DNA of 64,000 nt from Acidimicrobiales bacterium. GTDB lineage: Bacteria > Actinomycetota > Acidimicrobiia > Acidimicrobiales > Poriferisodalaceae. Where the stretch lies: contig CBDBZP010000005.1 in assembly GCA_965213585.1 (NCBI GenBank), forward strand, positions 1,329,376 through 1,393,375, given 5' to 3'. The notes beneath the pieces are model-generated. The model had not been told where the DNA came from and searched no databases. It saw only the letters and a list, made by a program, of their open reading frames with translations. The position numbers and the translations under genes were made by a program. The stretch's first letter is position 1; every line of letters starts with the position of its first letter. Shown here one piece after another: positions 24,829 through 59,776 of this stretch.

Positions 24829-25995
24829 ATGGCCTTCGAAGTGTCCGACCGCGGCTTCATCTTCTGGCCTGTCGGCTGCGGTGACAGCACCACGATCAAG
24901 GTGAACGACAACGTCTTCCTGCAGGTCGACCTTCGCCACACCGAGAAATCCGAGGACGACGACGAGCCGACCAGCCCCGTCGTCGACGAGCTCATGGAGC
25001 TCCTGCCGGAGATCAAAGGCACGAAGTACCTGGCGGTGTTCGCGCTCACCCACCCCGATCTCGATCACTGCCAGGGGTTTCAGATCCTCATGGAGAAGGT
25101 CGAGGCCGGCGAGCTCCGCATCGGCGAGCTGTGGTTCACGCCACGGATCTTCCGCGAGTACGACACCGATGAGGGCCTGTCCGAGGACGCCCAAGCGTTT
25201 TGCGACGAGGCGACCCGGCGGGTCGAGGCCATGGTCGGCAAGTCCGAGGACGAGATCGAGTCCGGCGACCGGGTAATGGTCATCGGGAACGACGACATCC
25301 TCGACGATGACGACTACAAGCAACTGCCTGACCGGTTCAAGACCCATCCGGGCCAGAACATCGTCGTGCTCGACGGAGCGAGCCACGAGGGCACGTTCCG
25401 GGCGTTCATTCACGCGCCGTTCGGCGACGACTCCGCCGGCGAGCGGAACCGGACGAGCCTCGCGATGCAGGTGACCCTGACCGACGGTGAAGGGTCAGGA
25501 CAAGTCCTTCTGTTCGGGGACCTCGACTACCCGGCGCTCAAGCGGATCTTCGACTACAGCGACGCCGAGGACCTTGCTTGGGACGTGCTCCTCGCGCCGC
25601 ACCACTGCTCGAAGTCCGCCATGTATCTCCAGGAGGAATTTGACGAACAGGCCGTCCTGAAGAAGGACATCGTAGTCGCCATGACCGACGCCGCCGGCGA
25701 GACCGGTTGGGTCGTCTCCTCCTCCGTGAAGGTGCCGGCCACGAACCAGCCGGGCGACAACCCGCCGCATGCGAAGGCAAAGGCGCAGTACGAGGCAATC
25801 GCCCCGGACGGGTTCCTGTGCACTGGCGACGACGGAGGCAGCGACGACCCGATCGTGTTCGCGGTCGGCGCCACCGGAATCTCGCTCCTCACGTCTGTCG
25901 ATGCCGGTGAGTCGAAGGTTGCGGCCGCGATCACGGCGGCTCGGGGCGGAACCGAGCCGCACGGGCAACAGGTCGGCTTCGGCCGACCGGCATGA
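24829..25995 (+). CDS. Metallo-beta-lactamase-fold protein (first gene of the cassette)
   Basis: ATG 24829 behind gaaagg. Motif LTHPDLDHCQG (25048-25068), an HxHxDH-like site. Later FGDLD and LLAPHHCSKS. GC visibly lower than the surroundings. Confidence 0.8.
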   Translation: MAFEVSDRGFIFWPVGCGDSTTIKVNDNVFLQVDLRHTEKSEDDDEPTSPVVDELMELLPEIKGTKYLAVFALTHPDLDHCQGFQILMEKVEAGELRIGELWFTPRIFREYDTDEGLSEDAQAFCDEATRRVEAMVGKSEDEIESGDRVMVIGNDDILDDDDYKQLPDRFKTHPGQNIVVLDGASHEGTFRAFIHAPFGDDSAGERNRTSLAMQVTLTDGEGSGQVLLFGDLDYPALKRIFDYSDAEDLAWDVLLAPHHCSKSAMYLQEEFDEQAVLKKDIVVAMTDAAGETGWVVSSSVKVPATNQPGDNPPHAKAKAQYEAIAPDGFLCTGDDGGSDDPIVFAVGATGISLLTSVDAGESKVAAAITAARGGTEPHGQQVGFGRPA

Positions 25996-28900
25996 CACCA
26001 GGGCAGGTACAGGCTGAAGCTGAGCTGCGACGAATCGCTGCGGCGTCTCCAGGAGCGATCGAGATCGACAGCATCACTCACACCGGAAGCTCGATGGTCG
26101 CTGTCGTCGGTGTCGACTGCCGCGGCTTCGACCACGTCGAGGGCGGCATCAAGCTCCGGCAGCGTGAATGGTTCGATATCTCGGTCCCGGCGAAGTTCCC
26201 GTTCAAGCCGCCTTCGGCGTGGGTACGTCACGAACGTTGGGCCGGGGCTCCGCACGTTCAGTGGAAGCGGTCCCTCTGTCTCTACGTCGCTACGGCCGTT
26301 GAGTGGAACCCGTCCGACGGCATGTACGGCTTCCTCGACCGCCTCGTCCGCTGGCTACGTGAAGCAGCGCTGAACCAGCTCGACCCTGTCGGAGGTCCCC
26401 AGCATCCCCCCGTTGCGTACCCGTCGCCCGGAACCCCACTCTTCATCCCACGCGTTGATACCCCGGCCGTCGGTCTTGCGTCGTGGGCTGGGTTCGCCGA
26501 GTTCACGTCCCCGGCTGACCGTCGCCACGACCTCGTCGGGTGGCACAAGATCGGCAGCGACAACCTGCGGCCGGAGGCCCGTTACGCGGCAGCTGTCCTC
26601 CTCAACGAGCCTCTGCCGTTCGAGTTCCCGAGGTACCTCGGCCACCTCATCCGTGATCTCGAACGCGGACGGTTCGACAAGGACGTGCTGTACCTGCTCC
26701 TCGGGATCGCCGCTCAGCGCCTGAAGGAGGACGAGCCGCTGTACGTCGTCATTGGGACGCCGATGCGGGCCACGGCAGAAGGCGAACCTCGCCAGCATCT
26801 CGCCGTGTGGCGGCTCGATGCCGAGCCTGCGGACTCGTTCAAGACGCTGCTCATCGACGCCGGCGACAACCAACGGATGAGGGAGCTGCTGGCGCGGCTT
26901 GAAGAAGCCGTCGACAAGTGGGCGCAGGTCGCGCCGGTCGAATGGTGCAAGGTCCGTGAGGCACGGCCAGAGGTCACACAGGACCGCGCTAGTGGGTCGC
27001 CCCTGCGGGTATTCGAGGGGCGGAAGGTCGCCGTATGGGGTTGCGGAGCGATCGGCTCCCACGTCGCCGAGATTCTCGTGCGGGCAGGCGTCGCTCACCT
27101 CGTGCTCCGCGATAGCGGGATCGTCGCACCGGGTGTCCTCAGCCGGCAGTGGTTCGACGACTCCGACATCGGTGAGAGCAAGGCAGCCGCGCTGAAGGAC
27201 CACCTTCTTGCCATCAACCCCGACCTCCAAGTTGACGCCCACCACGGCGACGTCATCACCGACAGCGGGATCGAGTCCGACTGGACCGACGGCGCCTCGC
27301 TGGTGGTCGAAGCGACCGCAAACAACGCGGTCTCTCGGTACCTCGAAACACGCCGGATGAACTCGTCTCGCGCCGCGCATGTCGCAACCCTGGTGTTCGG
27401 GCACACCGCTGAGCACGGGCGCGCCACGTTCATCCCATCCGAATCAGGTGCCGGGCCGGCGGACGCCGCACGGAACGCCAAACTCGCCGCCCTCCGGAAC
27501 CCGGACCTCCGAGCGTTCGCCGACGAGTTCTGGCCCGACCCGCCGCGCACCGCCTACTTCCAGCCCGAGCCTAGGTGCTCGGAACCGACCTTTACGGGCT
27601 CCGAGGCAGAGGTCTCGGCGTTGACGGCGTACATGGTCGGCTTCGTCGCACAGGAATTTCATTCGGGACAGGAGTCGATCTCGGCGTTCTACGCGTCGGT
27701 CGCAGACGATGGCCCCAACAGCTCCGTCGTCCGGTTCGCCGCCGACCTCGTGCTCAACGAACCCTTCGGCGGCTACGAGGTTCGAATCGCGGCCTCCGCC
27801 CTCGCTGAGCTTCGGGCCTGGACGCGGCGAAGCGAACGGAACGCGCCGGGCCACGAAACAGGAGGAGTCCTCTTCGGGGAACGGGACGACGCCCTGCAAG
27901 TCATCTGGGTCACCGATATCCTCGGTCCTCCGCCGGACAGCCAGGCGTCGCCGTGTGCGTTCATTTGCGGCATTGATGGGGTCGACGATGCCGCTGCGTA
28001 CTTTCAAACACGCGCTCGCGATTCGTCGTCGCCGATTGGCATGTGGCACACCCACCCCGACGGCCCCCCGCGTCCGAGCCCGACCGATCGCGGCGGCATG
28101 GCACAGCTCGTAGGCAACGACGACCGGCCCCTGCCGAAGCAGCTGTTGCTCATCGTCGGCGGCAGCCGGGAGTCGCACAACCTCGCGGCGTACACGTATG
28201 ACAGCGACACGCCGCCGCCAGCGACGTTCGAGGTCGCCACTCGGCCCCTGCCGGTGGACGGGCGACCTCCCCATCGGATTGGCCTCGCCCTTTCAGGGGG
28301 CGGCTTCCGAGCCGTCGCGTTCCACCTCGGCGTTCTCCGTGGCCTACACGACCGGGGCGTCCTCGAGCACGTGGACGTGGTGTCCTCGGTGTCGGGCGGC
28401 TCGATCATCGCTGCGATGTGGGCGTACAGCGACGACTCGTTCGAGGAGTTCGACGCCCGAGTCGTATCACTGCTCAAAGGCGGCCTGACCGGGAAGCTCC
28501 TCGGCGTTGCACTGCGCCGAGGGCCGCAAGCCGCAGCGTCGAGCGTCGTCGCAGCAGCCGGCTCAGCGTGGAACCTCGCCGCCGGGATCGCCCGACGTGT
28601 CACGGGGACAGCGAGACGACCCGCCGAGCCGCCGTTCCGGCGTGCGGTGACACGCACGCGGGCCCTCGAGGACGTCTTCGCCGCCCGCTTGTTCGGACAG
28701 GCAACGGTTGACGAGCCACTGCGGCCCCTGGCGACCGTCATCAACGCCGCCGAGCTCCGGAGCGGCAACGCGTTCCGCTACGGCAGTGCAGAAGGCGGCT
28801 CCAGCCGCTTCGGCCGGCTCACCGGGCCGGCGCCGACAGTCGCGCGCGCTGTAACCGCCAGCGCCGCCTACCCCGTCGCGTTCCCCGCGATGGACGACGT

Positions 28901-29402
28901 GCTCGCCTTCACCGGCTTCGACGGCACCGAGCGCACGGAGCGCGTCCTTCTCACTGACGGAGGCGTCTACGACAACCTCGGCGTCACAGCTCTTCAACCC
29001 GGCCGGAAACCCCGCTACAGCACGAACGTTCACCCGGTGGACTTCATCGTGTCCGCCGACGCCGGCTATGGCGTCCTTGACACCGACAAGTGGCCGTTGT
29101 GGTGGCCCACACGGATGAAGCGATCCTTCGAGTCCGTGTATCGGAAGGTCCAGGACGCCGGTAGGGGCCTCCTGCACGAGCACCGTGACAACAGAAAGAT
29201 CCGCGGGTTCGCGCTTCCGTTCCTCGGCATGAACGACCGGGCGCTACCGCTCCGGCCACCCGACCTCGTGCCGCGCGACGCCGTCGCCGGATACCCGACG
29301 AACTTCGCAGCGATGACCGACGACGACCTCGCGCTCCTCACCCTGCGCGGCGAACAGCTCGTGCGGCTCACGATCGAAGCGCACTGCCCCGAGATCGCGT
29401 GA
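25992..29402 (+). CDS. Four-module fusion protein: E2-like + E1-like (ThiF/MoeB) + JAB/JAMM peptidase + patatin-like phospholipase
   Basis: E2-like APHVQWKRSLCLY (Cys96, 26277-26279). E1 Rossmann VAVWGCGAIGSHVAEILVRAGV...LSRQ (27039-27056) and Cys529 (27576-27578). JAMM E622 plus HTHPDGPPRPSPTD (28047-28088). Patatin GGGFRA (28296-28313), SVSGG (28386-28400) and DGG (28956-28964). ATGA overlap with the MBL gene. Confidence 0.9.
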   Translation: MTPGQVQAEAELRRIAAASPGAIEIDSITHTGSSMVAVVGVDCRGFDHVEGGIKLRQREWFDISVPAKFPFKPPSAWVRHERWAGAPHVQWKRSLCLYVATAVEWNPSDGMYGFLDRLVRWLREAALNQLDPVGGPQHPPVAYPSPGTPLFIPRVDTPAVGLASWAGFAEFTSPADRRHDLVGWHKIGSDNLRPEARYAAAVLLNEPLPFEFPRYLGHLIRDLERGRFDKDVLYLLLGIAAQRLKEDEPLYVVIGTPMRATAEGEPRQHLAVWRLDAEPADSFKTLLIDAGDNQRMRELLARLEEAVDKWAQVAPVEWCKVREARPEVTQDRASGSPLRVFEGRKVAVWGCGAIGSHVAEILVRAGVAHLVLRDSGIVAPGVLSRQWFDDSDIGESKAAALKDHLLAINPDLQVDAHHGDVITDSGIESDWTDGASLVVEATANNAVSRYLETRRMNSSRAAHVATLVFGHTAEHGRATFIPSESGAGPADAARNAKLAALRNPDLRAFADEFWPDPPRTAYFQPEPRCSEPTFTGSEAEVSALTAYMVGFVAQEFHSGQESISAFYASVADDGPNSSVVRFAADLVLNEPFGGYEVRIAASALAELRAWTRRSERNAPGHETGGVLFGERDDALQVIWVTDILGPPPDSQASPCAFICGIDGVDDAAAYFQTRARDSSSPIGMWHTHPDGPPRPSPTDRGGMAQLVGNDDRPLPKQLLLIVGGSRESHNLAAYTYDSDTPPPATFEVATRPLPVDGRPPHRIGLALSGGGFRAVAFHLGVLRGLHDRGVLEHVDVVSSVSGGSIIAAMWAYSDDSFEEFDARVVSLLKGGLTGKLLGVALRRGPQAAASSVVAAAGSAWNLAAGIARRVTGTARRPAEPPFRRAVTRTRALEDVFAARLFGQATVDEPLRPLATVINAAELRSGNAFRYGSAEGGSSRFGRLTGPAPTVARAVTASAAYPVAFPAMDDVLAFTGFDGTERTERVLLTDGGVYDNLGVTALQPGRKPRYSTNVHPVDFIVSADAGYGVLDTDKWPLWWPTRMKRSFESVYRKVQDAGRGLLHEHRDNRKIRGFALPFLGMNDRALPLRPPDLVPRDAVAGYPTNFAAMTDDDLALLTLRGEQLVRLTIEAHCPEIA

Positions 29403-31231: not shown

Positions 31232-33478
31232 TCACGGGTCGCTGCGGGGCCCGATGGGCGCTCGGGCCAGGACGATGTCGTCGAGGTAGAGGTGGGTGGG
31301 GCGGTCGACGCCGGCGGGGCCGCCGTAGAAGGTGTCCATGCGGATCTCGTTGATTCCCCAGCCGAAGGTCTGGTGGGTGGGCCCGTAGAAGGTGACGGTC
31401 AGGTCGAGGCCTTCGGTGCCGTTGACCCAGCCGGTGATGCGGCCGTCGTGGCGGCCGGGGGTGTTGATCCGGTAGCGGACCTCGATGGTGTTCCACGCCC
31501 CTTTGGTGAGCCGCAGGGGGGCGCCGTTGGGGCGGCGGAAGTAGGGGTCGATGCCGACGTAGCGGCCGTCGGGGCGGGGGCCGTCGCTGATGTGCTCGCT
31601 GCCGGCGGCCCAGACGTAGAAGTAGCCGACGAGCGCGCACCCGGAGCGCCACATGAGCCGGCCCGACCAGGCCGACTGGTGGTAGGTGCCGCCACCTGAG
31701 CCGGATCCGGGTGCGGTGCCGGCTCTCGGGTTGCCGGCCAGGCCGGGGAGCTTCCCGCCGACGGTGTCGCACCCGAAGTCGCCCGGGACGTAGAGCCGGT
31801 AGCGGAGGTACAGCTCGTCTTCCCAGGCCCGGGGGTGACCGAGGGCGGTGAGGGTCTGGTGGTAGCGGGCCCCGAACTTGGCTGAGTCGGTGTGGGCGGG
31901 CTGGCTGTGGGGGTTGAAGTCGACCCGCAGGGCTTGGCCGTGACCGCCGGGCGGGGCGGGCACGGCGCGGAGGCGCCGCCCGTCGGGGCCGGTGCCGTCG
32001 TCGGGCCCGAACGTGGCCGAGATCCCGTAGTCGGCCCACCAGCGCGGTCCGGGGTGGTCGTAGGTGCCCATCCAGATGACGTCGGCCCGGCCGGCGAGGC
32101 GGGCCTCGGCGGTGGGGGTGTCGGCGTCGCCCAGCACCCGCCCGGGGACCGCCGACGCCCCGGCTACGTCGCCAGGGTCAGCCGGGGGCGCGGGTGGTGG
32201 CGGCGGGGGGGTCTCGAACGCGACGTGAAAATGGTGGCGGTGGAGGCTGTTGGTGAACCAGCCCGGCCGGCGGGCCAGGTCGGCCCAGGGCTGGCCGACC
32301 TCGTCGGGGCTGAGCAGGTCAGCGGGCCGCCCGGCCAGGTAGTCGGCTAGGGCCCGGGCGTGGGGGTTGGTGGCGGTGACGGGCACCGCCGGGCTGTCGG
32401 CGGGTCCGACCAGGGCGATGTCGGTGGCCCGCCCGTAGTAGTGGTTCGAGACCGAGCAGCCCGGCCCGGTGTTGGCGCCGCCGGGGAGGACGGCGCAGCG
32501 GGAGTGGCCGGTGGCGAAGTTGATCAGGTGCAGCCGCCACCGCCCGGCCAGCTCGGCCAGGAGGGCCACGAGGCGCCAGTCCACCGTGCCCGCTTCGAGG
32601 TCGGCCCGGGCGGCGGCGCTCATGGTCACGTTCGGGTGCGCCAGGAGCACGGCCACCTCGACGGGACCGCCGCCGGTGAGGGTGTAGCGGGCGGCCCAGG
32701 CCAGGACGTCGTCGGCGTAGACGCTCGAGCGGTTGTAGGCCCACAGGGCCCGGCGTTCGTCGTTCTCGTCGTCGATGCGGCCTCCGGCGGCGTGGCAGAG
32801 GTAGTCGGCGGCGCCGACGGCGGCGTCGGGGTAGGTGTGGGGGCTGGCGGTGCCGTCACCGTCGGCGTCGACACCCCACGCGGCCCAGGTGGCGGTGATG
32901 AACTGCATGGGTCCGGTGGCCCGGTCCCAGCGGGGGTCGTCGTGCCAGGGGCTCCCCCCGGCCGGGACGGCGATGGCGGCGACGCCTGGTGAGCCGTCGA
33001 GGGCGGGGCCGACGATGGGTGGGGTGACGTCGAGGTCGGCGGTGAGGGTGGCGCTCCCGTAGCGGCCGTGGTCGGACTCGATCTTGGCCACGGCGGCGAG
33101 GAGCTGCCAGCGCAGCCCCGGGCAGCGGGCGGCGGCGTCGGCGTAGACGCCGAGGAGCACGGCGGGGATGTCGGCGACGGCGCCGCCGGCGACGGCGGGC
33201 TGGGTGAGACGGGGGGCGGCCACCAGCAGCGGCAGACCCATCGTCGTGGCCAGCATCCCGGTGACCGCGGCGGCGGCCACGATCGCTCTGGGGCGGCCTC
33301 GCCGTTGCTGTCGGCGGCGGGCGACCCAACGGAGGGCGGGCAGGGCGGGACCGGTCACGTCTCTCCCGAGAGTCCACCCGGCAGCCCGGGTGCCGCCCGC
33401 TCGGGTCCGGCGCCCATGTGGGCGGTAGCGGCGCGACGGATCGGCGGGGGGCGGCCTCTTGGGGTTGGGAGGCGCCAC
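31232..33478 (-). CDS. Three-domain cell-wall hydrolase: lytic transglycosylase + LAS/M15-type metallopeptidase + C-terminal polysaccharide-lyase/concanavalin-like domain
   Basis: SLT-like LLAAVAKIESDHGRYG...GPMQF. LAS motifs SNHYYGRATDI and HRHHFHVAF. The C-terminal part GGTYHQSAWSGRLMWR...WNTIEVRYRINTPGRHDGRITGWVNG resembles the PL14-like fold. Confidence 0.75.
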   Translation of the reverse strand: MAPPNPKRPPPADPSRRYRPHGRRTRAGGTRAAGWTLGRDVTGPALPALRWVARRRQQRRGRPRAIVAAAAVTGMLATTMGLPLLVAAPRLTQPAVAGGAVADIPAVLLGVYADAAARCPGLRWQLLAAVAKIESDHGRYGSATLTADLDVTPPIVGPALDGSPGVAAIAVPAGGSPWHDDPRWDRATGPMQFITATWAAWGVDADGDGTASPHTYPDAAVGAADYLCHAAGGRIDDENDERRALWAYNRSSVYADDVLAWAARYTLTGGGPVEVAVLLAHPNVTMSAAARADLEAGTVDWRLVALLAELAGRWRLHLINFATGHSRCAVLPGGANTGPGCSVSNHYYGRATDIALVGPADSPAVPVTATNPHARALADYLAGRPADLLSPDEVGQPWADLARRPGWFTNSLHRHHFHVAFETPPPPPPAPPADPGDVAGASAVPGRVLGDADTPTAEARLAGRADVIWMGTYDHPGPRWWADYGISATFGPDDGTGPDGRRLRAVPAPPGGHGQALRVDFNPHSQPAHTDSAKFGARYHQTLTALGHPRAWEDELYLRYRLYVPGDFGCDTVGGKLPGLAGNPRAGTAPGSGSGGGTYHQSAWSGRLMWRSGCALVGYFYVWAAGSEHISDGPRPDGRYVGIDPYFRRPNGAPLRLTKGAWNTIEVRYRINTPGRHDGRITGWVNGTEGLDLTVTFYGPTHQTFGWGINEIRMDTFYGGPAGVDRPTHLYLDDIVLARAPIGPRSDP

Positions 33479-37125: not shown

Positions 37126-38492
37126 GCACCCCACCGGCCACCCACCGGCCCGACCCCGGCGGCGGCGGCGGTGACGGCGACGGCGCCGGGGGCGGGCGGG
37201 CCCGGCGGCGGCTGCGGGCCGGGCGACTGCGAACCACCACCGCGCACCTGTGCTCCATCTACCCCTGGTCGGTCGAAGACGACCTCGGCCACCGGGGCGT
37301 CTACTGGGGCACCGACGCCCTCTCCGGCGGGGGCCCCATGTTCTGGGACCCCTTCGAGGCCTACCACCACCTCCCCGACGGGCCCACCAACCCCAACGTG
37401 TTCATCGTCGGCGCCCCCGGCAACGGCAAATCCGCTCTCGTCAAGACCGGCCTGTGGCGCATGCACGCCCTCTACGGTCCGGCCCGCTGGTGGGCGATCT
37501 GTGACCCCAAAGGCGAATACGTCGACCTGGCCCACGCCATCGGCGCCGAACACCTCCGCCTCGCCCCCGGCGGCGTCTGCCGCATCAACCCCCTCGCCGC
37601 CGGGCCCGCCGGCGGCGCCGACCCGGCCCGCCGAGCCCGCCGCCACCACGGCCTCCTCCGGGCGCTGTGCGCCCTCGGGATGGGCGAAACACCCAGCCAG
37701 GAAGCCGACGCCGTCCTCTACGCCACCGCCCGCCACCTCAACACCGGTCCCCACACCACCCCCAGCCTGGCCGACGCCCGCACCCTCCTCCACCAGCCCC
37801 CACCCCAGGTTCTCGACGCCGCCCGCCTCGACGACCCCACCCACGCCCGGGCCGTGACCCGGCCCCTGGTGCTGGCCCTGGACCGGCTACTGGGCAACGA
37901 GCTGGCCGGCATGTTCGACGGCACCGACCCCGTCCCCGTCAACTGGACCGCCCCCGGCCTCGTCCTCGACCTGTCCGCCGTGTTCGGCGACACCGACGTC
38001 TTGTCGGTGGTCATGGTGGCCGCCACCGGCTGGCTGACCGAACTCATGGGCACCCCCGGACCCCAACGGGTCCAGGTCTTCGACGAGGTCTGGGCGCTCC
38101 TACGCGATCCCGCCGCCACCCGGCACCTGCAGCACTGCTGGAAGCTGGGCCGCACCTACGGGGTCGCCAACATCGCCGTCTGCCACCGGCCCTCCGACCT
38201 CACCGCCCAATCCGACGACGGCACCGCCCTATCCAAGATCGCCGCCGGACTCCTGGCCGACACCGCCACCAAGATCCTGCTCCGCCAGGACCCCGACCAG
38301 CTCGCCCACGCCCAGGTCGCCTTCGGTCTCTCACCCGCCGAGGTGGCCGTGGTAGCCGGCCTGCGTCGCGGGGAGTCGCTGTGGCGCACCGGGGAACGCT
38401 CCGCCCGCCTCACCCACCGCTACCACCACACAGAAGCCGCACTCATCGACACCGACGCCCGCATGCGTCACCCCGACGAGCAGCGGCTGTGA
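37122..38492 (+). CDS. VirB4-like conjugation ATPase (SCO6881-like)
   Basis: ATGA overlap. Walker A IVGAPGNGKSAL. Walker B RVQVFDEVWALL. Confidence 0.8.
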   Translation: MSTPPATHRPDPGGGGGDGDGAGGGRARRRLRAGRLRTTTAHLCSIYPWSVEDDLGHRGVYWGTDALSGGGPMFWDPFEAYHHLPDGPTNPNVFIVGAPGNGKSALVKTGLWRMHALYGPARWWAICDPKGEYVDLAHAIGAEHLRLAPGGVCRINPLAAGPAGGADPARRARRHHGLLRALCALGMGETPSQEADAVLYATARHLNTGPHTTPSLADARTLLHQPPPQVLDAARLDDPTHARAVTRPLVLALDRLLGNELAGMFDGTDPVPVNWTAPGLVLDLSAVFGDTDVLSVVMVAATGWLTELMGTPGPQRVQVFDEVWALLRDPAATRHLQHCWKLGRTYGVANIAVCHRPSDLTAQSDDGTALSKIAAGLLADTATKILLRQDPDQLAHAQVAFGLSPAEVAVVAGLRRGESLWRTGERSARLTHRYHHTEAALIDTDARMRHPDEQRL

Positions 38493-39640
38493 ACCGCTGG
38501 CCGGGTCCGCGCCCGTCGTCGCCGGACCGGCCGGCGGCCCGCTGGGACCGCGCCGAGATCCTGGCCCGCACCGACCTGGCCGCCCTCGCCGACGAGCTCA
38601 TCGGCGGCCGCAAAGGCCACGGCACCGCCGCCCGCTGGCCATCCCCCGTACCCGGCCACCCCCAGACCGGGCGCACCCCACCCATGAGCATCTTCACCGA
38701 CCGCTCCGGCGTCCAGCGCTTCACCTGCTGGTCCACCGGCACCTCCGGCACCGCCATCGACCTCCTCATCGTCACCCGCAACATGGGCGCCGGCGACGCC
38801 CTCGCCCTCCTCGCCCACCGGGCCGGCCTGCACCGCCCCCACACCATCCCCGCACCCGCCGCCCGGGCCCGGCCGGCGCCCCGCACCCAACCGCCCGAGC
38901 CGGTCACCGACCTGGCCCGCCTGCGCCGCTACCTGACCGCCACCCACCACCAGCTCCGCTCGGCCGCAGGCGCCGAGGCCCGGGACTGGATCTCCGACCG
39001 GTGGGGCATCGACACCGCCAGCGTCGCCCGCCACGGCCTCGGCCTCGACACCCACCCCCGGGTCCTGGCCCGCTCACCGGCCGGCGCCGTCGTCCTACCC
39101 GTCCGCGACCAGACCGGGCGGGCCGTCTACTACCAGGCCCGGCTCCTCTCACCCGGACCCGACCAACCCAAGTACCTCAACCCACCCAACCGCGTCGCCA
39201 CCAACCCCCTCATCGGCTGGGTCCGGCCCCCCCGGCCCCGGCCCGGGCCCCTCGTCATCTGCGAAGGCGTCCCCGACGCCATCGCCGCCGCCGACGCCGG
39301 CTACCCCGCCGCCGCCCTCATCGGCGTCGCCGCCGCCCGCAACCCCGCCGTCGCCGCGACCCTCGCCTCCCACCTCGACCACCACGGCGCGATCGTCGCC
39401 CTCGACGCCGACCCCGCCGGACGCGCCGCCGCCGCCCACCTCACCGCCACCCTCACCCACGGCGCGGCCGGGCCGGTCGGCGAGATCGTCACCTACCACC
39501 ACAGCGACCTGGCCGCCTGGCGGCTCGCTACCGGACCCCACTGGGCCGACACGCTCGCAGCCTGCGTCACCAACGCCGCCCACCGGCCCGACCTTGCCAC
39601 CCTCGAACGGTCCGGCCCCGGCCGGGCCCGCAGCCGGTAG
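38489..39640 (+). CDS. DnaG-like primase with a Toprim domain and a cysteine-poor zinc-finger-like N-terminus
   Basis: GTGA overlap. Toprim PLVICEGVPDAIAAADAG ... IVALDADPAG. The N-terminal WPSPVPGHPQTGRTPPMSIF...FTCWSTGTSGTAIDLL resembles a CHC2 finger with its ligands replaced. Confidence 0.7.
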   Translation: MNRWPGPRPSSPDRPAARWDRAEILARTDLAALADELIGGRKGHGTAARWPSPVPGHPQTGRTPPMSIFTDRSGVQRFTCWSTGTSGTAIDLLIVTRNMGAGDALALLAHRAGLHRPHTIPAPAARARPAPRTQPPEPVTDLARLRRYLTATHHQLRSAAGAEARDWISDRWGIDTASVARHGLGLDTHPRVLARSPAGAVVLPVRDQTGRAVYYQARLLSPGPDQPKYLNPPNRVATNPLIGWVRPPRPRPGPLVICEGVPDAIAAADAGYPAAALIGVAAARNPAVAATLASHLDHHGAIVALDADPAGRAAAAHLTATLTHGAAGPVGEIVTYHHSDLAAWRLATGPHWADTLAACVTNAAHRPDLATLERSGPGRARSR

Positions 39641-41490: not shown

Positions 41491-43980
41491 ATGGCCTCGA
41501 AGTCACAGCGGCGTCGCGCAACCAAGCGCAAGCGTGCGCTGCACCGCGCACGCGCTTTGCGAGCGGAGGACCTCCCGACGCTACCTCGGCCGCTTCGGCT
41601 GGCAGCCGAGGGCTACGAGCGGATGGCCAAGCTCGTGGGCCAGTCCGCCAGCGAGGCGGAGGCGCGCGACACTCTCGAGAGGCAGCTGCGAGCTGCGGTG
41701 GAGCGAGTCGTGGAGCTAACGGAGCGCTTCGACGCATTCGATGTCATCGAGTGTCTCAAGATCTCGGAAACTCTCTTCGATCCAGAGACGTACTGCGAGA
41801 CGGAGAACGAGGGCATGGCCGCAGTGATCGAGCTAGCTGCGGCGATCCTCTCCTGTCGCGGCACGCGGTACCCGGACGCAGAGCATCTGGCAACGAGCCG
41901 TCAGCCCGACGAGGTAATCGACGACGTCCGTGCCGCCTGCCGGGAGATCCTTGATGTCGGGTCGATGGCCCTCTTGCTCGATGGGCTGACCGCGTCGGAT
42001 GATCAGGCGAAGCTTGCGATGTCTGCTGCACTCCGTGAGGTCTTCGTTCGCAACTTGATCTATGAGCACATGCTCGTTGACACGCTCTCCGGGCTCTTCG
42101 ACGAGCCGGCCGTCGAGCTGGCCTGTCGTCAGACAATCGGGTGTTCGGGTGCCGAGGTGCGAAGCGTGGTGTCCGCGCTTCAGGAGATGCATGCGGGGGC
42201 CTGGCACGCACGATTCGCCTCTGCAGCGGAGTTCATGAACTTTTTGACGGAAGCGCACGCTGTCCGGGTAGCCGAGGCCGAAGCGGCGGATGCGGCCGGC
42301 GATCCGCTGCGAGCGATCGACGATGCTGAGCGGGAGCGAGCTCGCGAGCTGCACGACGCTGCATGGGAGAGGCCAGCGGACGCTGCTGTTGTGGACGTAC
42401 TCGCCGTGTCGAGCCGGACAGGTCTTCCCCCTGAGGTGGTCTCGACCGCCGTTCAGCTCCTTTCGCAGCCGATGACCTCCGGGAACCCTGTGACGGCTGC
42501 GAAGGCACTTCTGTCCGGCCGAGCTCCGTTTCGTACGCGACCTATGCTGAGCGATCCAGACGGCTCGGTGATGGCCGTCCACGAGAGTCTGGTGCTGGCA
42601 GGCGTCCGAGATCGGATGGAGGGGAAGCTCAAGAACTCGACGGGGTGGAATCTCTACGCCAAGCACCGCGGTGAGTTCCTAGAGACTGTCAGCCTTCGGC
42701 ATCTTCAGACGTTGCTCCCAGGCGCGAGTGTATACTCGTCATTGAAGTACTTCGTGCCGGATCCGACGAACGACGAGCCAACCCCAGCGACGTACACGAA
42801 GCTGGTCGAGGGCGACGGCCTCCTGCTGTTGGACGACATCGCGATAGTCCTTGAGGCGAAGGCCGGTGCCTTCGGCACCGAGGCACGGGCGGGCAACCGA
42901 AGTCGGCTCAGGTCCGACCTTCGCAAGCTGTTGACCGAGGCGGCGGCGCAGTCGGCGCGATTACGGGAGCGCCTCGACCGTGACGGTGGTATTCGGCTGC
43001 AGGATGGAAGCTGGCTGGACCTCACGAGCGTACGAGAGGTTCATCAGGTCTTGGTCACTCTCGAGGACCTCTCATCTATCGCCACCGAGACCGTCGAGCT
43101 TGTGACAGCTGGACTGCTGAGCATCGACGACGTGCCCTGGACCGTGTCGGTGCACGACTTGCGCATCATCGCCGAACTCATCGAACGGCCCGCCGAGTTT
43201 CTGCTGTACCTTCGTCGGCGCACCGCTCCAACGGTGACCTCGTTCCACCATGCGGTAGACGAGCTCGACTTATTCCTCGAGTTCTTCGCCCACGGTCTGT
43301 ATGTCGAGCCGGACCCTGAGGAGGTCTACGCCCGCATGCCGCACCTCGGCGAGCCGTCCGTTGCCGATCGCCGACGGTTCAAAAAGCAGGGCGTGACCAT
43401 CCTTGCCAGCCGAACCGACGCACTCGATGCCTGGTATTTCCACAACCTGGGGATCCGTCGGACAGAAGCGCCGAAGCCAAAGCACAACGCAAACCCGAAG
43501 GTGCGGGAGCTCGTCGACTCGCTCGAGCGGCTGCGGCCGGACGGTTGGCTGGCGACCGGTGCGACGCTCCTTGGTGCCTCATCGGCACTACAGGACCGAT
43601 TCGCCAAGATGGCGCCCGACCTTCGGCGACTCACAGGGCGTGACCATAAATCCCACTCGTACACGACGTTCTCGGCTGGTGACGGTAACGACACCGTCCT
43701 GCTGGTTTGGGTGACGCTTGCGAAGACTGAGTCAGTGGCCTCGGCGACGCAACGGCTGCGCGCCTACATGCTCGCCAAGAAGCATCAGATGCAAGCGGTC
43801 ACGGCGGCGTGCATGATCTTCGGTACCGATCAGCTGCCGCTAGCACTGCTCTACGAGAACAAGCCCCCAGGCCCAGACCTCGATCTCGACGCCGTGATTG
43901 CCCGGTCCGACCTGCGTCCGCCGACTGCGGGGGTCGACCCGAGACCTGGGCGAGGAGCCCGTCGAAGGCCTCTGCGGTGA
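41491..43980 (+). CDS. Large hypothetical cargo protein (829 aa) with a possible PD-(D/E)xK-like motif
   Basis: Clean long ORF in a lower-GC segment. GDGLLLLDDIAIVLEAKAG (about 42810-42870) resembles a D...ExK nuclease core. No other motif recognised. Confidence 0.7.
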   Translation: MASKSQRRRATKRKRALHRARALRAEDLPTLPRPLRLAAEGYERMAKLVGQSASEAEARDTLERQLRAAVERVVELTERFDAFDVIECLKISETLFDPETYCETENEGMAAVIELAAAILSCRGTRYPDAEHLATSRQPDEVIDDVRAACREILDVGSMALLLDGLTASDDQAKLAMSAALREVFVRNLIYEHMLVDTLSGLFDEPAVELACRQTIGCSGAEVRSVVSALQEMHAGAWHARFASAAEFMNFLTEAHAVRVAEAEAADAAGDPLRAIDDAERERARELHDAAWERPADAAVVDVLAVSSRTGLPPEVVSTAVQLLSQPMTSGNPVTAAKALLSGRAPFRTRPMLSDPDGSVMAVHESLVLAGVRDRMEGKLKNSTGWNLYAKHRGEFLETVSLRHLQTLLPGASVYSSLKYFVPDPTNDEPTPATYTKLVEGDGLLLLDDIAIVLEAKAGAFGTEARAGNRSRLRSDLRKLLTEAAAQSARLRERLDRDGGIRLQDGSWLDLTSVREVHQVLVTLEDLSSIATETVELVTAGLLSIDDVPWTVSVHDLRIIAELIERPAEFLLYLRRRTAPTVTSFHHAVDELDLFLEFFAHGLYVEPDPEEVYARMPHLGEPSVADRRRFKKQGVTILASRTDALDAWYFHNLGIRRTEAPKPKHNANPKVRELVDSLERLRPDGWLATGATLLGASSALQDRFAKMAPDLRRLTGRDHKSHSYTTFSAGDGNDTVLLVWVTLAKTESVASATQRLRAYMLAKKHQMQAVTAACMIFGTDQLPLALLYENKPPGPDLDLDAVIARSDLRPPTAGVDPRPGRGARRRPLR

Positions 43981-44114: not shown

Positions 44115-44438
44115 CTACTGGTGCGCCGGGTCCGAGCGAGCCCCGTCGGCATCGGACGGGCGCTGGGGGGGCCAGTCGATCCGGCCGCCGATCAGTTGCT
44201 CGAGAGCGGCTCGCGGGACACGCAGTCGGCGTCCCAAGCGGACCACGGGTAGACCGTTGCGGCCTCCCGAGTCGAGGAACTCGTGGGCGAGGTCGTACGC
44301 ACAAGTCCGCCCCACCCTCAGCACCACGGCGGCCTCCTCAACGGACAGCAGCGGTGGTGCCGGCGATCGAACGGCCGGTTCCGCTGGCAGACGGTCGCGA
44401 AGGGGCGAGCAGGGACGGTCGCGGTGCGGGCGGGCCAT
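44115..44438 (-). CDS. Excisionase-family/MerR-like HTH DNA-binding protein
   Basis: LLSVEEAAVVLRVGRTCAYDLAHEF...LPVVRLGRRLRVPRAALEQLI. Adjacent to the tRNA-like repeat. Confidence 0.65.
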   Translation of the reverse strand: MARPHRDRPCSPLRDRLPAEPAVRSPAPPLLSVEEAAVVLRVGRTCAYDLAHEFLDSGGRNGLPVVRLGRRLRVPRAALEQLIGGRIDWPPQRPSDADGARSDPAHQ

Positions 44439-44672
44439 GAGCACAATTAGAGGCCGGCTCATCGAGAATGCGTTGCAAGATCGGGTTCGGGCATGCCGGG
44501 GCCCAGCGCCATGGGCCGTCCCGTTCTCGGCCCGGGGTGCACGAAAGGTGCACGGACGCCGCCGGACGGGCCCGGATCAGCCGGATCGGCGGCGCCCGCC
44601 CGAGGGGCGTTCTGCCTGGTCACGGCGTACGAAGGCGCACTTGGACGGACTCCGCCGGAAGGGCCGGACGCA

Positions 44673-44716
44673 ACTTCTAATCCGACGGTCGCAGGTTCGA
44701 ATCCTGCCGGGGGCGC
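44673..44716 (+). repeat. tRNA 3'-half-like sequence (anticodon loop to discriminator), putative att site and right end of the ICE
   Basis: acttctaatccgacggtcgcaggttcgaatcctgccgggggcgc contains a canonical T-arm (GCAGG-TTCGAAT-CCTGC). No matching 5' half or CCA. Nearly identical to 47295-47338. Confidence 0.7.
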
Positions 44717-44774
44717 TGCGAATTACCAGGTCAGCAGCCTGGACGGCTCGGGGCGGCAGGCCCGAAACCGCAGT

Positions 44775-44816
44775 TGTCCCATCTCTGTCCCATCAATCGG
44801 TCCAGGCTTGTCCCAT
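44775..44816. repeat. Three TGTCCCAT motifs (44775, 44786, 44809)
   Basis: Read from the DNA. A homologous pair lies at 47169 and 47181. Confidence 0.6.
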
Positions 44817-44837
44817 GGCCCGGGGGAGCATCCGCCT

Positions 44838-46300
44838 GGAGGTTGTCCCGGTAGTCGTGGAAGTTGAGGTGGCGGTCCCCCGCTCGAGACCTGCCGGCTG
44901 GTAGGTGTCGGGCGACCGCCAAGTCACTCGACAGCAAGGGACCACCACCTGTGACCAAGAACTACCAGACCACCACCGCGCCCGACATGATCGACGAGAC
45001 GCTGGCGATGCCGGCCGAGGTGACCGTCGCCCTGGCCGAGATCGGCGGCGCCGCCCGGGAGGGCCTGCTGGCCCTGGCGGTAGCCACCGGCCTCGAGGTG
45101 ATGGGCGCCATGATGGAGGAGTCCGTGTGCGCCCTGGCCGGCCCCAAGGGCCGCCATGACCCCGACCGGACCGCGGTCCGCCACGGCAGCGAGGACGGCT
45201 CGGTCGTCCTCGGCGGGCGGCGGGTGCCGGTGCGCCGGCCCCGGGTCCGTACCGCCGACGGCACAGCCGAGCTGGCGGTGGGCGCCTATGAGGCGTTCAC
45301 CGGCTCGGATCTGCTCGAAGCGCTGGCGTTGGAGCGGATGATGGCCAAGCTGTCCACCCGCCGCTACTCCGCCGGGCTTGAACCCGTCGGCGCCGCCGTC
45401 GAACAGAGAGCGAATTCGACGTCGAAGAGTTCGATCTCTCGGCGGTTCGTGGCCCGCACCGAGACGGCCCTGGCCGAGCTGATGGCCGCTGACCTGTCCG
45501 GTCACGACATCGTGGCCCTGATGATCGACGGCGTGCACTTCGCCGGGCACTGCTGCGTCGTGGCCCTCGGGATCAGCATCGACGGCACCAAGATCCCCCT
45601 CGGCCTGGTCGAGGGCGACACCGAGAACACCACCGTCGTCCGGGACCTTCTCGCCGGGCTGCGGGACCGGGGCCTGGACACCACCCGCCCGGTGCTCGTC
45701 GTCATCGACGGCGCCAAAGCCCTCGCCGCCGGGGTACGGGCCGTGTTCGACCACCCCGTCATCCAACGCTGCCAGCTCCACAAGATCCGCAACGTCGAAG
45801 CCCGCCTCCCCAAGTCGACTGCGCCCACGGTGGCCAAGAAGATGCGGGCCGCCTACCGCTGCACCGATCCGCTCACCGCCGAGGCGACCCTCGAAGCGCT
45901 CGTCCGTGACCTCACCCGGTCCCACCCCGGCGCGGCGGGGTCGCTCCGGGAGGCCCTGGCCGAGACGCTGACCGTCAACCGGCTCGGGGTGCCACCCACC
46001 CTGGCCCGGACCCTGCGGTCGACCAACGCCATCGAGTCGATGATCGAGATCTGCCGGGACCACAGCTCGAACGTCAAGCGCTGGCGTGACGGCCAGATGG
46101 TGCTGCGCTGGTGCGCCGCCGGCATGGGCGAGGCCGCCCGCCAGTTCCGACGGGTCAACGGCCACCTCCACCTCCGAGCCCTCCGCCAGACCCTCGACGA
46201 CCACACCACCGGCCGTGTCACACCCCCATGCCATGATGAGGAAGCCGCCTGAACCACACCGGGCCGCCACCGAAGTTCCACGAAACTCGGGACATCCTCC
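44838..46300 (+). mobile_element. IS256-family insertion sequence
   Basis: Imperfect terminal inverted repeats: ggaggttgtcccggtagtcgtggaagttgaggtggcgg (44838-) against the reverse complement of 46261-46300 (ggaggatgtcccgagtttcgtggaacttcggtggcgg). They enclose the transposase gene. Confidence 0.8.
44951..46252 (+). CDS. IS256-family (Mutator-like) transposase
   Basis: GTG 44951. MIDGVHFAGHCCVVALGISIDGTKIPLGL..., VIQRCQLHKIRNV and TNAIESM are typical of the family. Confidence 0.9.
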   Translation: MTKNYQTTTAPDMIDETLAMPAEVTVALAEIGGAAREGLLALAVATGLEVMGAMMEESVCALAGPKGRHDPDRTAVRHGSEDGSVVLGGRRVPVRRPRVRTADGTAELAVGAYEAFTGSDLLEALALERMMAKLSTRRYSAGLEPVGAAVEQRANSTSKSSISRRFVARTETALAELMAADLSGHDIVALMIDGVHFAGHCCVVALGISIDGTKIPLGLVEGDTENTTVVRDLLAGLRDRGLDTTRPVLVVIDGAKALAAGVRAVFDHPVIQRCQLHKIRNVEARLPKSTAPTVAKKMRAAYRCTDPLTAEATLEALVRDLTRSHPGAAGSLREALAETLTVNRLGVPPTLARTLRSTNAIESMIEICRDHSSNVKRWRDGQMVLRWCAAGMGEAARQFRRVNGHLHLRALRQTLDDHTTGRVTPPCHDEEAA

Positions 46301-46303
46301 CTG

Positions 46304-46960
46304 CTAGCTCCCGACGTCCCGAGACACGCCGCCCCCTCCGCCGGGGACACGGCCACCATCGGCCACCTCACCGCCGCCGGCTGGGCCGTCGACGTCGTCG
46401 ACGACGACACCCTTACCACCGGCACCGCCGAGGCCGCCGACGCCGTCATCGTGTCCCGTGACGCCACCACCGCCACCGTCAACACCCACCTCACCGCAGC
46501 CCGGGTCCCCGTGGTCGCCTCCAACTCCCAGCTCTTCGACGACCTGGGTCTCACCACCGGCACCGGCACCACCACCCAGAACCGGACCGCCCTGACCATC
46601 ACCAGCGCCGCCCACCCCGCCGCCGGGGGGGCCAGCGGCACCGTCGGGGTCTTCGGGGGCAGCCGCAACATCGTCACCGTCCCCACCGCCGACGTCGCCG
46701 CCAACGCCACCATCATCGCCACCGCCGCCGGCCAACCCGACCAGGCCGCCCTCGACGCCGGCCAGGACGGCGCCGACGGCCAACCCGCCCCCGCCCCCCG
46801 GGCCGCCTGGTGGGCCACCAACACCAACACCACCGCCCACACCCCCGGCGCCTGGGACCTCCTCGACGCCACCCTCACCTGGGCCACCACCACCCCCGGC
46901 ACCACCACCACCCGCCGCTACAGCCCCGACGGGCTCCTCGCCGCTTCACACGGCAGATCT
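46304..46960 (+). pseudogene. Start-less fragment of a secreted/repeat protein, truncated at both ends
   Basis: The in-frame reading begins right at the IS256 end (APDVPRHAAPSAGDTATIGHLTAAGWAVDVVDDD...) and ends in ...RRYSPDGLL, after which composition changes. Confidence 0.45.
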
Positions 46961-47168
46961 CACGCACTTGGTGACACGGGCCGGACGGCGACGCATTCTG
47001 CGGACCGCGCATCGGACGGACCTGACCAGGCCTTTTCGGACTCGACGGGTCCCGGCGAACGGCTGTCAAGGCCCTTGCGTTCCGCAGGCTCGCCACCGTG
47101 ATCGCCGACGCTTGCGTTCGGATCTCGGGGGCGGTCCGTCAGTCAGTCGTGGCCCCCGTGCGGGGTCC

Positions 47169-47188
47169 TGTCCCATCAGTTGTCCCAT
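47169..47188. repeat. Two TGTCCCAT motifs (47169, 47181)
   Basis: tgtcccatcagttgtcccatcaa is homologous to 44775-44797. Confidence 0.6.
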
Positions 47189-47294
47189 CAACTCGGCGGC
47201 ATGGGCTCGGACGGGGGCGGATGGGAAAGCGCTGGGAGTGGACTTGACCTGGTCAAACAGGACGGGCCCGGACTGGACGGACGGCTCGGCGGAC

Positions 47295-47341
47295 ACTTCC
47301 CATCCGACGGGTCGCAGGTTCGAATCCTGCCGGGGGCGCCA
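47295..47341 (+). repeat. Second tRNA 3'-half-like sequence, ending in CCA (putative outer att/original tRNA 3' end)
   Basis: acttcccatccgacgggtcgcaggttcgaatcctgccgggggcgcca. I could not fold an acceptor 5' strand (gcccccg), D-arm or anticodon stem upstream, so it is not called as a tRNA gene. Confidence 0.6.
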
Positions 47342-47394
47342 GTCGAGTGGCGGCGGCTCCCTGGCCGGATATCAGATCGGATAAGATTCGGACG

Positions 47395-48078
47395 GTGACC
47401 GCTCCCGTCCCTCGCTTGGCCGAGGTCCTGGCCAGCGCCGCCCGGCTTCAGGAGATCGTGCCCGGAGCCGTCCTGGTCGGGGGTACCGCTGCGGCCCATT
47501 ACGCAGGACACCGCCTGTCGACGGATCACGACCACGTCGTCGCCGACCTGGCCGACCGGTTCGAGACGGTCCTCGCCAACCTCGAGGCGTTGGGTGACTG
47601 GACCACGGCGCGGGCCCAGGCGGGTCGGATCATCCTCGGTGAGCTGGGCGGAATCGAGACGGGGATCAGACAGCTACGGCGGAGCCGCCCCCTCGAGGTG
47701 GAACAGGTCGAGATCGGTGGACGCCCCCTGACCGTTCCCACCGCGACGGAGACGCTGCGCGTCAAGGCATGGCTCGCGCTGACCCGCAACCAGACCCGCG
47801 ACTACCTCGACATCGCCGCCCTGGCGACACTGATCGGCCCGTCTGCGGCGGCGGCAACCCTGGCTGCCATGGACGACTACTACGCCGACGTCTACGAGGG
47901 TGACGATCGCGTTGCCACGCAGGTCGCTCGACAGCTCGCCGACCCCCGGCCCCGTGACGAGAGGACGGTCGACAGCCTGCGGACCTATCGCCGCCTCGAT
48001 CCGCGCTGGCACCGCTGGGACGACGTGGTCGCCGTGACGCGCGACGTGGCGCGCTCGATGCTGGAGGTGGAGCCGTGA
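47395..48078 (+). CDS. AbiEii/AbiGii-like nucleotidyltransferase (putative type IV toxin); start uncertain
   Basis: AVLVGGTAAAHYAGHRLSTDHDHVVADL fits the GGTA...R-S-D-D pattern of the family. Confidence 0.55.
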   Translation: MTAPVPRLAEVLASAARLQEIVPGAVLVGGTAAAHYAGHRLSTDHDHVVADLADRFETVLANLEALGDWTTARAQAGRIILGELGGIETGIRQLRRSRPLEVEQVEIGGRPLTVPTATETLRVKAWLALTRNQTRDYLDIAALATLIGPSAAAATLAAMDDYYADVYEGDDRVATQVARQLADPRPRDERTVDSLRTYRRLDPRWHRWDDVVAVTRDVARSMLEVEP

Positions 48079-48560
48079 GCGCACCGACCCCGACCAGCCG
48101 GCTTCGCTTCCGCAACGTCGACGTCGATCCGGACGAGCCCGTCGCCGGCTGGCCACACGAGGCGATCCACACCGCCCTCGAACGGGGCACGCTCGCCGAC
48201 TGGCGGCGCATCGCCGCCGAGATCCGCCGCTCGCCCTGGGGGCCGGTGGCCCGCACGGTCGAGGGCATCGTGGCGTGGGGCGAGCTGTACGGCGTCGATC
48301 CCCTCATGGCAGCCGTCATGGAGCGGGCCCGCGCCGAGGTCACGATGGCCGGCCGTCGCCGCTTCGCCGACCACCTCCGAGCGCAGCGCGAGCACTCGGG
48401 TCTGACGCTGCGCGAGCTCGCCGCCCTCGCCGGCACCAGCGCCTCCCGCCTCAGCGCCTACGAGAACGCGCGGGTCTCGCCGACCACCGACGTGGTGGCC
48501 CGGCTCGAGCACGCCGCTGCCGTGGCCCGGCCGGGCGTGGGGACCGGCGCCGACCCGTAG
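48075..48560 (+). CDS. XRE-family HTH protein coupled to the NTase gene
   Basis: GTGA overlap. C-terminal LTLRELAALAGTSASRLSAYENARVSPTTDVVARL. Confidence 0.7.
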   Translation: MSAPTPTSRLRFRNVDVDPDEPVAGWPHEAIHTALERGTLADWRRIAAEIRRSPWGPVARTVEGIVAWGELYGVDPLMAAVMERARAEVTMAGRRRFADHLRAQREHSGLTLRELAALAGTSASRLSAYENARVSPTTDVVARLEHAAAVARPGVGTGADP

Positions 48561-58779: not shown

Positions 58780-59637
58780 TCAGGAGAAGGCGGGGAGGAT
58801 GTCGTCGGCCCAGTCGTCGAGGAGGGGCAGGCACACGTCGGCCGACGCCGGCGGGAGGCCGAGCATCACCCGGTCGAGGCCCTGGTCGGCCAGGCCGGAG
58901 ATGAAGTCGACGTCCGGCTTGGCTCCGAACATGGCGAGGTGCAGGCCGTCGAAGTCCCGCCCGGCGGCGTCGCATGCCTGGCGCAGACCGCTCAGCCCGT
59001 CGGCGAGGGAGTGTCGGCCGCCGATCGGCATCCACCCGTCGGCGTAGGACACCACGGCGTCGAACATCTTCGGTCCGGCCCCGCCCCCCAGGATGATGCG
59101 GGGGTGGGGTTCCTGCAGCGGCTTCGGCCAGGCCCACGACGGTTCGAGCGACACGTGCTCGCCCTGGTAGGACGCCTCGTCGGAGGTCCAGAGGGCCTTC
59201 ATCAGCGCGATCTTCTCCCGGACGATCTCCCGCCGCTTCCCGAAGTCGACGCCGTGGGTGGCCATCTCCTCCTTGTTCCAACCGAAGCCCACGCCCAGGT
59301 CGAAGCGGCCCCCGGAGATCAGGTCGAGCGAGGCGACCTCCTTGGCCAGCCAGACGGGGTCCCGCTGGGCCACGAGGGTGATGCCCGTCCCCAGCCGGAT
59401 CCGCTCCGTCACCGCCGCGCAGGCGGACAGGGCGACGAACTGGTCGTAGGTCCTCGAGTACTCCTCGGGCAGGGGCGGCGCGTCCTTCATCAGCCCCCAG
59501 GGGGTCTCCCGGCTGGAGGGGATGTGGGAGTGCTCGGGGAACCACAGGGACTCGAAGCCCCGGGCCTCGACCTCCCGGGCCAGCTCGACCGGCGCGATGG
59601 CCTGGTCGGTCGGAAAGATCAGCACGCCGATGTCCAC
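58780..59637 (-). CDS. LLM-class (luciferase-like) F420-dependent oxidoreductase
   Basis: MDIGVLIFPTDQAIAPVELAREVEARGFESLWFPEHSHIP... is a typical N-terminus of the family. Confidence 0.85.
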   Translation of the reverse strand: MDIGVLIFPTDQAIAPVELAREVEARGFESLWFPEHSHIPSSRETPWGLMKDAPPLPEEYSRTYDQFVALSACAAVTERIRLGTGITLVAQRDPVWLAKEVASLDLISGGRFDLGVGFGWNKEEMATHGVDFGKRREIVREKIALMKALWTSDEASYQGEHVSLEPSWAWPKPLQEPHPRIILGGGAGPKMFDAVVSYADGWMPIGGRHSLADGLSGLRQACDAAGRDFDGLHLAMFGAKPDVDFISGLADQGLDRVMLGLPPASADVCLPLLDDWADDILPAFS

Positions 59638-59699: not shown

Positions 59700-59776
59700 C
59701 GGGGAGTGGCGCAGCTAGGTAGCGCACCTGCTTTGGGAGCAGGGGGTCGCCGGTTCGAATCCGGTCTCCCCGACCA
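59700..59776 (+). tRNA. tRNA-Pro (anticodon TGG)
   Basis: Hand fold. Acceptor CGGGGAG/CTCCCCG. D stem GCGC/GCGC. Anticodon stem CCTGC/GCAGG with loop TTTGGGA. T arm GCCGG-TTCGAAT-CCGGT. Ends in ACCA. 77 nt. Confidence 0.9.

Follow-up and report, generated by a model that had tools for sequence, protein, structure and literature searches.

Tandem accretion of integrative elements in a single tRNA gene is a well-known, ordinary pattern. In the course that has been described, an element integrates and decays to a cis-mobilizable element (CIME), which retains attL and attR and has no integrase, and a second element then enters the same target, giving a tandem with a chimeric internal attachment (att) site; the examples include one at a tRNA-Lys gene, where the two integrases share <30% identity (PMC5704250). 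Here we analyse a 64,000-nucleotide stretch (the window, C5:1329376–1393375, where C5 is the contig) from the 3.8 Mb, ~73% GC genome of an Acidimicrobiales bacterium. Two site-specific integrative elements, an integrative and conjugative element (ICE) termed element A and a decayed remnant termed element B, appear to have entered the 3′ half of a single tRNA-Arg(TCT) gene and to form a tandem there, a reading whose probability we put at roughly 0.88.

The layout is that of the ICE–CIME tandems exemplified by ICESt1/ICESt3 of Streptococcus thermophilus and the tRNA-Lys island of S. agalactiae (PMC5704250), i.e. an intact tRNA gene, an element, a chimeric att site, an integrase-less decayed element and an attR with the native tRNA 3′ end. 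As in those systems, two distantly related integrases target the same tRNA core. The present case differs in that the arm sites of the remnant are not those of the ICE, in that the host is of the Acidimicrobiia type, and in that the remnant was gutted by an insertion sequence (IS) of the IS256 family. We regard the locus as another instance of the pattern and not as a new kind of mechanism.

Attachment sites in the tRNA-Arg(TCT) gene and its partial copies

A preliminary description of the window noted two repeats of a tRNA 3′ half, only the outer of which ends in CCA, took neither for an intact tRNA, and placed the intact plus-strand gene beyond the left window edge. Whole-genome analysis with ARAGORN bears this out. 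The genome's single tRNA-Arg(TCT) gene is at C5:1307280–1307356 on the + strand (window −22095 to −22019), 22 kb left of the window edge, and an integrase gene is directly downstream. BLAST of this tRNA against the genome gives two further matches, both of them perfect over the lengths shown:

44673–44716, + strand: copy 1, 44/44 identity to tRNA nucleotides (nt) 32–75, then TGCG, without CCA
47295–47341, + strand: copy 2, of which 47310–47341 has 32/32 identity to tRNA nt 46–77, CCA included

Copy 2 can be extended leftward to 47295, but 47295–47309 is a diverged, anticodon-arm-like sequence with two mismatches and one extra G. ARAGORN calls neither copy a tRNA; the only tRNA that it reports inside the window is a tRNA-Pro at 59700, and there is none at 47.3 kb. 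Rfam gives zero tRNA matches at E≤1 in 44400–47600. Elements that target tRNA genes are bounded by the intact gene on one side and by a direct repeat of its 3′ part on the other, which is the layout seen here. Copy 1 is trailed by CTGCGAATTACCAGGTCAG, which is similar to what follows tRNA-Arg(CCT) in the element B family described below (CTGGCGAAATCCCAGGTCAG in one relative, G008).

With attB written as B-O-B′ and attP as P-O-P′, the proposed layout would be the tRNA gene (B-O-P′ of A), element A, copy 1 (P of A-O-P′ of B), element B, and copy 2 (P of B-O-B′). This model predicts that copy 1 has the identity limit of A on its left (nt 32) and that of B on its right (nt 75, no CCA, a B-type trailer), and that in copy 2 the left limit is that of B (nt 46) and the right side is the native end (CCA and chromosomal flank). 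Both sets of limits match the sequence. Judged by these limits, copy 1 is best read as a chimeric att site, combining the attR of element A with the attL of element B, and copy 2 as the attR of element B, which would keep the native tRNA 3′ end with CCA. The att sites had been called 'nested'; the arrangement is instead tandem (accretion). Either order of arrival of A and B yields the same structure, and the order is therefore not deducible. The locus offers a worked example of how tRNA identity limits at each repeat reveal which attP gave which side.

Element A and its putative arm sites

The principal features of element A are as follows, with assignments from Pfam.

C5:1307357 to window 44716: element A, ~66.8 kb, with transfer genes between the att sites; window 1–44672, + strand, is its right two-thirds
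Spanning the left edge of the window: TrwC relaxase with AAA_30 helicase, 1172 amino acids (aa)
9876–11546: T2SSE/VirB11-like secretion ATPase
19171–21621: coupling protein of a type IV secretion system (T4SS-DNA_transf/TraG-D_C)
31232–33478: SLT cell-wall hydrolase
37667–39640: Toprim primase
44115–44462, − strand: excisionase-type HTH_17 protein, 115 aa (HTH_17, E=1.4e-8), just left of copy 1
44536–44553, + strand: GGTGCAC-N4-GGTGCAC pair at the right end of A, 134 nt left of the copy-1 core

TadB/C-like T2SSF proteins are also encoded in A, and Pfam identified no VirB4-type ATPase within it. The relaxase, the coupling protein and the other transfer genes between att sites justify the label ICE, and by gene content element A can be classed as an integrative and conjugative element. 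Its integrase, IntA, is a 384-aa tyrosine integrase that starts 93 nt past the tRNA and has Phage_integrase, SAM-like and Arm-DNA-bind_4 domains (Pfam). Of the three spaced GGTGCAC pairs in the genome, two are at the ends of element A, the left one at C5:1307415, between the tRNA and intA (58 nt past the tRNA; the intA start follows 17 nt after the pair), and the third is within an unrelated coding region. The pairs at the two ends are candidate arm-type sites of element A, to which IntA would bind. Transfer genes, excisionase and GGTGCAC pair all lie to the left of copy 1, in keeping with the early suggestion that copy 1 marks the ICE end. A would excise by recombination between the tRNA and copy 1, with the GGTGCAC pairs acting as arm sites, and it may still be able to do so.

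It could be supposed that A and B are one composite element with its working right end at copy 2: the integrase of the ICE would act on the tRNA and copy 2 and take the remnant along, as happens in accretion with cis-mobilization, and copy 1 would be an internal relic. The tRNA and copy 2 do have in common an exact 32-bp core, T-arm included; the two integrases, at 34% identity, are homologous; and the transfer of CIME–ICE tandems has been documented in other bacteria (PMC5704250). We nevertheless consider a composite quite improbable. There is no GGTGCAC pair left of copy 2 or elsewhere near it, the nearest being that at 44536–44553 beside copy 1; the excisionase gene also adjoins copy 1; and although A and B have a tRNA core in common, their arm motifs are unrelated in sequence. 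Mobilization of the remnant in cis by the ICE is doubtful, since the arm motifs of B and A are distinct. With the tandem reading, boundaries are fixed for a 66.8 kb ICE with RHS toxin genes and a defence system, which is useful for annotation.

Some other features of the ICE can be mentioned. Its cargo includes a single 1136-aa protein (25992–29402) with Prok-E2_A, ThiF (E1-like), JAB and patatin phospholipase domains. An 829-aa open reading frame of lower GC (~64%) with no Pfam match (41491–43980) is found between the transfer genes and the excisionase. The left end of the ICE (C5:1309085–1325264) is full of insertion sequences: an identical copy of the IS256-family element treated below is split by an IS21-type element (IstA/IstB), and a second IS21-type element interrupts a ~2600-aa RHS/YD-repeat gene, leaving parts of 1376 and 1257 aa.

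Element B and its relatives

Between copy 1 and copy 2 are short direct repeats, TGTCCCAT, and the start of an integrase gene:

44673–47341, copy 1 to copy 2: element B, 2.6 kb, with both att copies and both arm-site clusters retained
44775, 44786 and 44809 (span 44775–44816), + strand: three exact TGTCCCAT repeats, putative P′ arm-type sites of B
44815–44838, + strand: integrase stub, first eight codons (MARGSIRL), ATGGCCCGGGGGAGCATCCGCCTG, aligned with the integrase starts of relatives
47169 and 47181 (span 47169–47188), + strand: two exact TGTCCCAT repeats, putative P arm-type sites of B

The motif is present 19 times in the genome on both strands, and five of these, all on the + strand, are within B, where ~0.013 would be expected per 2.6 kb interval. 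Its periods are 11 and 23 nt in the left cluster and 12 nt in the right.

Comparisons at family level, across genera, reveal elements of the same type. Among the loci around tRNA-Arg genes of relatives, one (L014, in genome G008) has four TGTCCCAT repeats. They form two pairs, one inside each end of a 12.3 kb element that occupies tRNA-Arg(CCT): the left pair is 70 nt past the intact tRNA-Arg(CCT) gene, and the right pair is 12 kb on, 110 nt before a 40-nt repeat of the tRNA 3′ part. The G008 integrase is a 384-aa protein of the tyrosine type with 34% identity to IntA, and starts 32 nt past the left pair. One genome per species was then scanned for a tRNA T-arm followed within 60–90 nt by a TGTCCCAT pair, and 20 loci were returned. 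Eleven of these, all with tRNA-Arg(CCT), are from Acidimicrobiia or from other Actinomycetota, and at most of the 11 the pair is followed by a homologue of the G008 integrase (42–92% identity, some truncated or frameshifted); at two (L027, L034) no integrase match was found. The right-end arrangement is also present in three of those genomes.

The distances are conserved. At attR ends, the first motif is 158 nt from the end of CAGGTTCGAATCC in the window and also in L014, L054 and L055, and 159 nt in L053. At the left end, the TGTCCCAT sites are at +87, +98 and +121 from the core GTCGCAGG in the window and at +98, +110 and, in degenerate form, +122 in G008, so that sites at +98 and ~+121 are common to both. 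The conserved core distance at both ends, together with the adjoining homologous integrase, is the ground on which the TGTCCCAT repeats are read as arm-type sites. The repeats had been put forward as recombinase arm-type sites at the outset. That part stands, as the same distances recur in relatives with a homologous integrase, but the repeats belong to the small element alone, and the putative arm repeat of the ICE is a different one, GGTGCAC. Elements of the B family elsewhere in Acidimicrobiia are ~12–14 kb in length and sit in tRNA-Arg(CCT), with TGTCCCAT pairs at fixed distances inside both ends. They make up a family of small Acidimicrobiia integrative elements that had not been described before, and they have clear candidate arm sites at fixed spacing.

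The design resembles that of lambda-type tyrosine integrases, which have an N-terminal arm-binding domain and arm-type sites in the P and P′ arms. Each of the two elements has direct repeats of 7–8 nt with a period of 11–12 nt inside both ends at a fixed core distance; IntA has a Pfam arm-binding domain, and the integrase genes start just inside attL, past the arm sites. A difference is that the core here consists of the T-arm and the acceptor end of a tRNA, and the putative arm motifs TGTCCCAT and GGTGCAC were not found described; a literature search for TGTCCCAT returned only unrelated primer sequences.

One alternative to arm sites is that the TGTCCCAT repeats serve as operators for some other regulator or are akin to the ends of IS256 elements. 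The left repeats are just upstream of the integrase start codon and overlap it, where promoter operators could be expected, the inverted repeats of the IS contain TGTCCCG and so have TGTCCC in common with TGTCCCAT, and similar pairs follow tRNAs in other phyla, sometimes with no integrase adjoining. Arm sites that overlap the int promoter are, however, usual in lambda-type integrative elements. The right pair is 870 bp from the IS, the core distance stays at 157–159 nt across five elements, of which four lack an IS at that place, and the pairs accompany homologous integrases at most of the 11 Actinomycetota loci. The chance that the repeats are something other than arm sites appears very small.

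Nine of the 20 scan hits are in other phyla. A specificity of TGTCCCAT for arm sites across phyla was considered and set aside, as a few chance matches to this 8-mer are to be expected among the very many elements next to tRNAs that have a repeated 8-mer of some kind, and several of these loci have no integrase close by. Coincidence is thus the more probable reading. Loci L024–L026, L028, L032, L035 and L038–L041 have the TGTCCCAT pair 60–90 nt past the T-arm in Methylococcaceae, Acidobacteriota, Alphaproteobacteria, Rhodanobacteraceae and Chitinophaga. The tRNAs or tRNA fragments concerned are those for Ser, Gly, Cys and Gln. As neighbours, some of the loci have an integrase, one has an IS6-type transposase, and some have core genes only.

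As to the integrase of B, the preliminary description had found none in the interval. It is correct that no gene remains, but the first eight codons persist at 44815–44838, and they are all that is left of an integrase between copy 1 and copy 2. The stub, ATGGCCCGGGGGAGCATCCGCCTG, can be aligned with the starts of the L029, L030 and L033 integrases, ATGGCACGGGGCAGAGGGAGCATCCGACTG (MARGRGSIRLKR). Its ATG overlaps the third TGTCCCAT repeat, and the IS starts at the base that follows the stub, 44839; the integrase gene of B thus breaks off after its eighth codon. When the whole genome is searched with the G008 integrase, no match exceeds 34% identity apart from a 51% identical fragment at C5:3127910–3128200. 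The genome is therefore without a cognate B integrase, this one fragment being decayed.

Besides att and arm sites, the interval contains only an IS and an RHS fragment, which is the content of a CIME. As no cognate integrase is left in the genome, B is probably an immobile, CIME-like husk. That copy 2 is where a small, decayed second element ends had been suggested beforehand, and the B-family arm sites and the integrase stub agree with it. The 51% fragment is part of a second decayed member of the B family, at tRNA-Arg(CCT) (C5:3127827–3128200). The tRNA trailer there runs directly into integrase codons ~117–220, the arm sites and the integrase N-terminus being deleted.

Insertion of an IS256-family element and loss of DNA from element B

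The decay of B has an identifiable cause, which goes beyond what was described before: an IS256-family element at 44839–46299 that has no target-site duplication. The features of this part of B are

44839–46299, + strand: IS-b, IS256 family (Pfam Transposase_mut, E=8e-31), with terminal inverted repeats GAGGWTGTCCCG
46327–46944, + strand: internal fragment of an RHS/YD-repeat gene, 93% DNA identity to the RHS gene of element A (C5:1316608–1317234), in opposite orientation
46943–47088, + strand: 146-nt segment right of the RHS fragment, 80% identity to C5:1313551–1313695 of element A

The IS is 1.46 kb in length and is found three times in the genome, with 99–100% identity. The other two copies, IS-a and IS-c, have matching 8–9 bp target duplications (CGTCCACC and GCGCGAACG), whereas the flanks of IS-b are mismatched (TCCGCCTG versus CCTGCTAG). 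Since the target duplication is absent, the flanks of IS-b were not originally adjacent and adjoining DNA has been lost. The element otherwise resembles the IS256 family in its length, in its one open reading frame for a Mutator-type (Transposase_mut) transposase, in its imperfect inverted repeats and in the 8–9 bp duplications at two of three copies; it is the window copy that departs from a typical IS256 member, which indicates an adjoining deletion. In the proposed mechanism, the IS256-family insertion and an associated deletion would have removed the integrase of B after codon 8 and most of the rest of B, while both att sites and both arms outlasted the deletion.

The mismatched flanks of IS-b, and the presence of three IS copies at 99–100% identity, which can mislead assemblers, raise the question of whether copy 2 and its surroundings are an assembly artefact (a wrong join across the 1.46 kb IS) or an IS-mediated rearrangement, with no second element at all. 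Had two sequences been wrongly joined, a contig should end inside an IS, or another IS copy should also have flanks that do not match. IS-a and IS-c both have matching 8–9 bp duplications, and there is no IS fragment on the small contigs C1–C4; a wrong join is therefore unlikely. Moreover, each flank of IS-b carries B-family features at family distances, i.e. the left arm sites and integrase start on one side and the right pair, at 158 nt, on the other. We give the artefact hardly any credence.

The RHS fragment lies in an open frame at 46298–47098, and its 5′ side is cut by the IS. Relative to the RHS locus of A, the copy in B lacks the RHS C-terminal end and the neighbouring 510-aa gene. An inversion between the inverted copies IS-a (near the tRNA) and IS-b was considered as the cause of the RHS orientation and rejected, as IS-a has a matching 9-bp duplication.

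It can also be pointed out that the inverted repeats of the IS (44839–44852 and 46288–46299; GAGGWTGTCCCG) and the arm motif have the hexamer TGTCCC in common, and that the IS lies 22 nt past the third arm site. This may be chance, or the transposase may favour sites that resemble its own ends.

Flanking regions and points against the tandem reading

On the left, a divergent tRNA-Lys/tRNA-His/tRNA-Arg(TCT) cluster is kept in five relatives as well as in this genome, and because the cluster is conserved the left side is taken to be native. On the right, tRNA-Pro(TGG) is 7–8 kb from tRNA-Arg(TCT) in two order-level relatives, and in G003 the orthologue of the gene at 58780–59637 is 19 kb from it. 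Here tRNA-Pro and this gene are 81–82 kb from the tRNA, or ~12 kb after A and B (69.4 kb) are subtracted. These distances give coarse support for insertion, short of demonstrating an empty site.

Several points weigh against two elements in tandem. The immediate flanks are not alignable at the DNA level across genera, a DNA search with the right flank gave no syntenic match in 40 relatives, and a look-up of the flanking AbiEii protein brought up no other strain on record. The relatives of IntA (41–49% identity) adjoin tRNA-Leu genes, and none of the fetched loci has the spaced GGTGCAC pair. Binding of the integrases to TGTCCCAT or GGTGCAC is suggested by position and conservation, and to that extent is putative. 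Finally, the sequence left of the copy-2 core is TCT-like here and of the CCT type in all other members of the B family, while the copy-1 trailer is CCT-like. It would seem that the attP of B was a hybrid, arising possibly through gene conversion from the neighbouring repeats or through a history of retargeting.

One might go further and suppose that B is a natural intermediate in retargeting (CCT to TCT), or else that the ICE still drags the husk along through the shared 32-bp core. We think this unlikely. If B is such an intermediate, its hybrid attP would preserve a record of how integrases of a tRNA-specific family move from one isoacceptor gene to another that has the same T-arm.

A small island is present at the same tRNA position in an order-level relative (L012, G026:C154, 5967–9586). 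There, a 30-nt repeat of nt 46–75 of tRNA-Arg(TCT) is located 3.5 kb downstream, and the island is without TGTCCCAT sites.

With respect to the right flank itself, an AbiEi-type partner is not evident beside the AbiEii-type nucleotidyltransferase gene; the latter lies directly outside copy 2 (47395–48560), where it overlaps an XRE-type HTH gene that has a long N-terminal extension.

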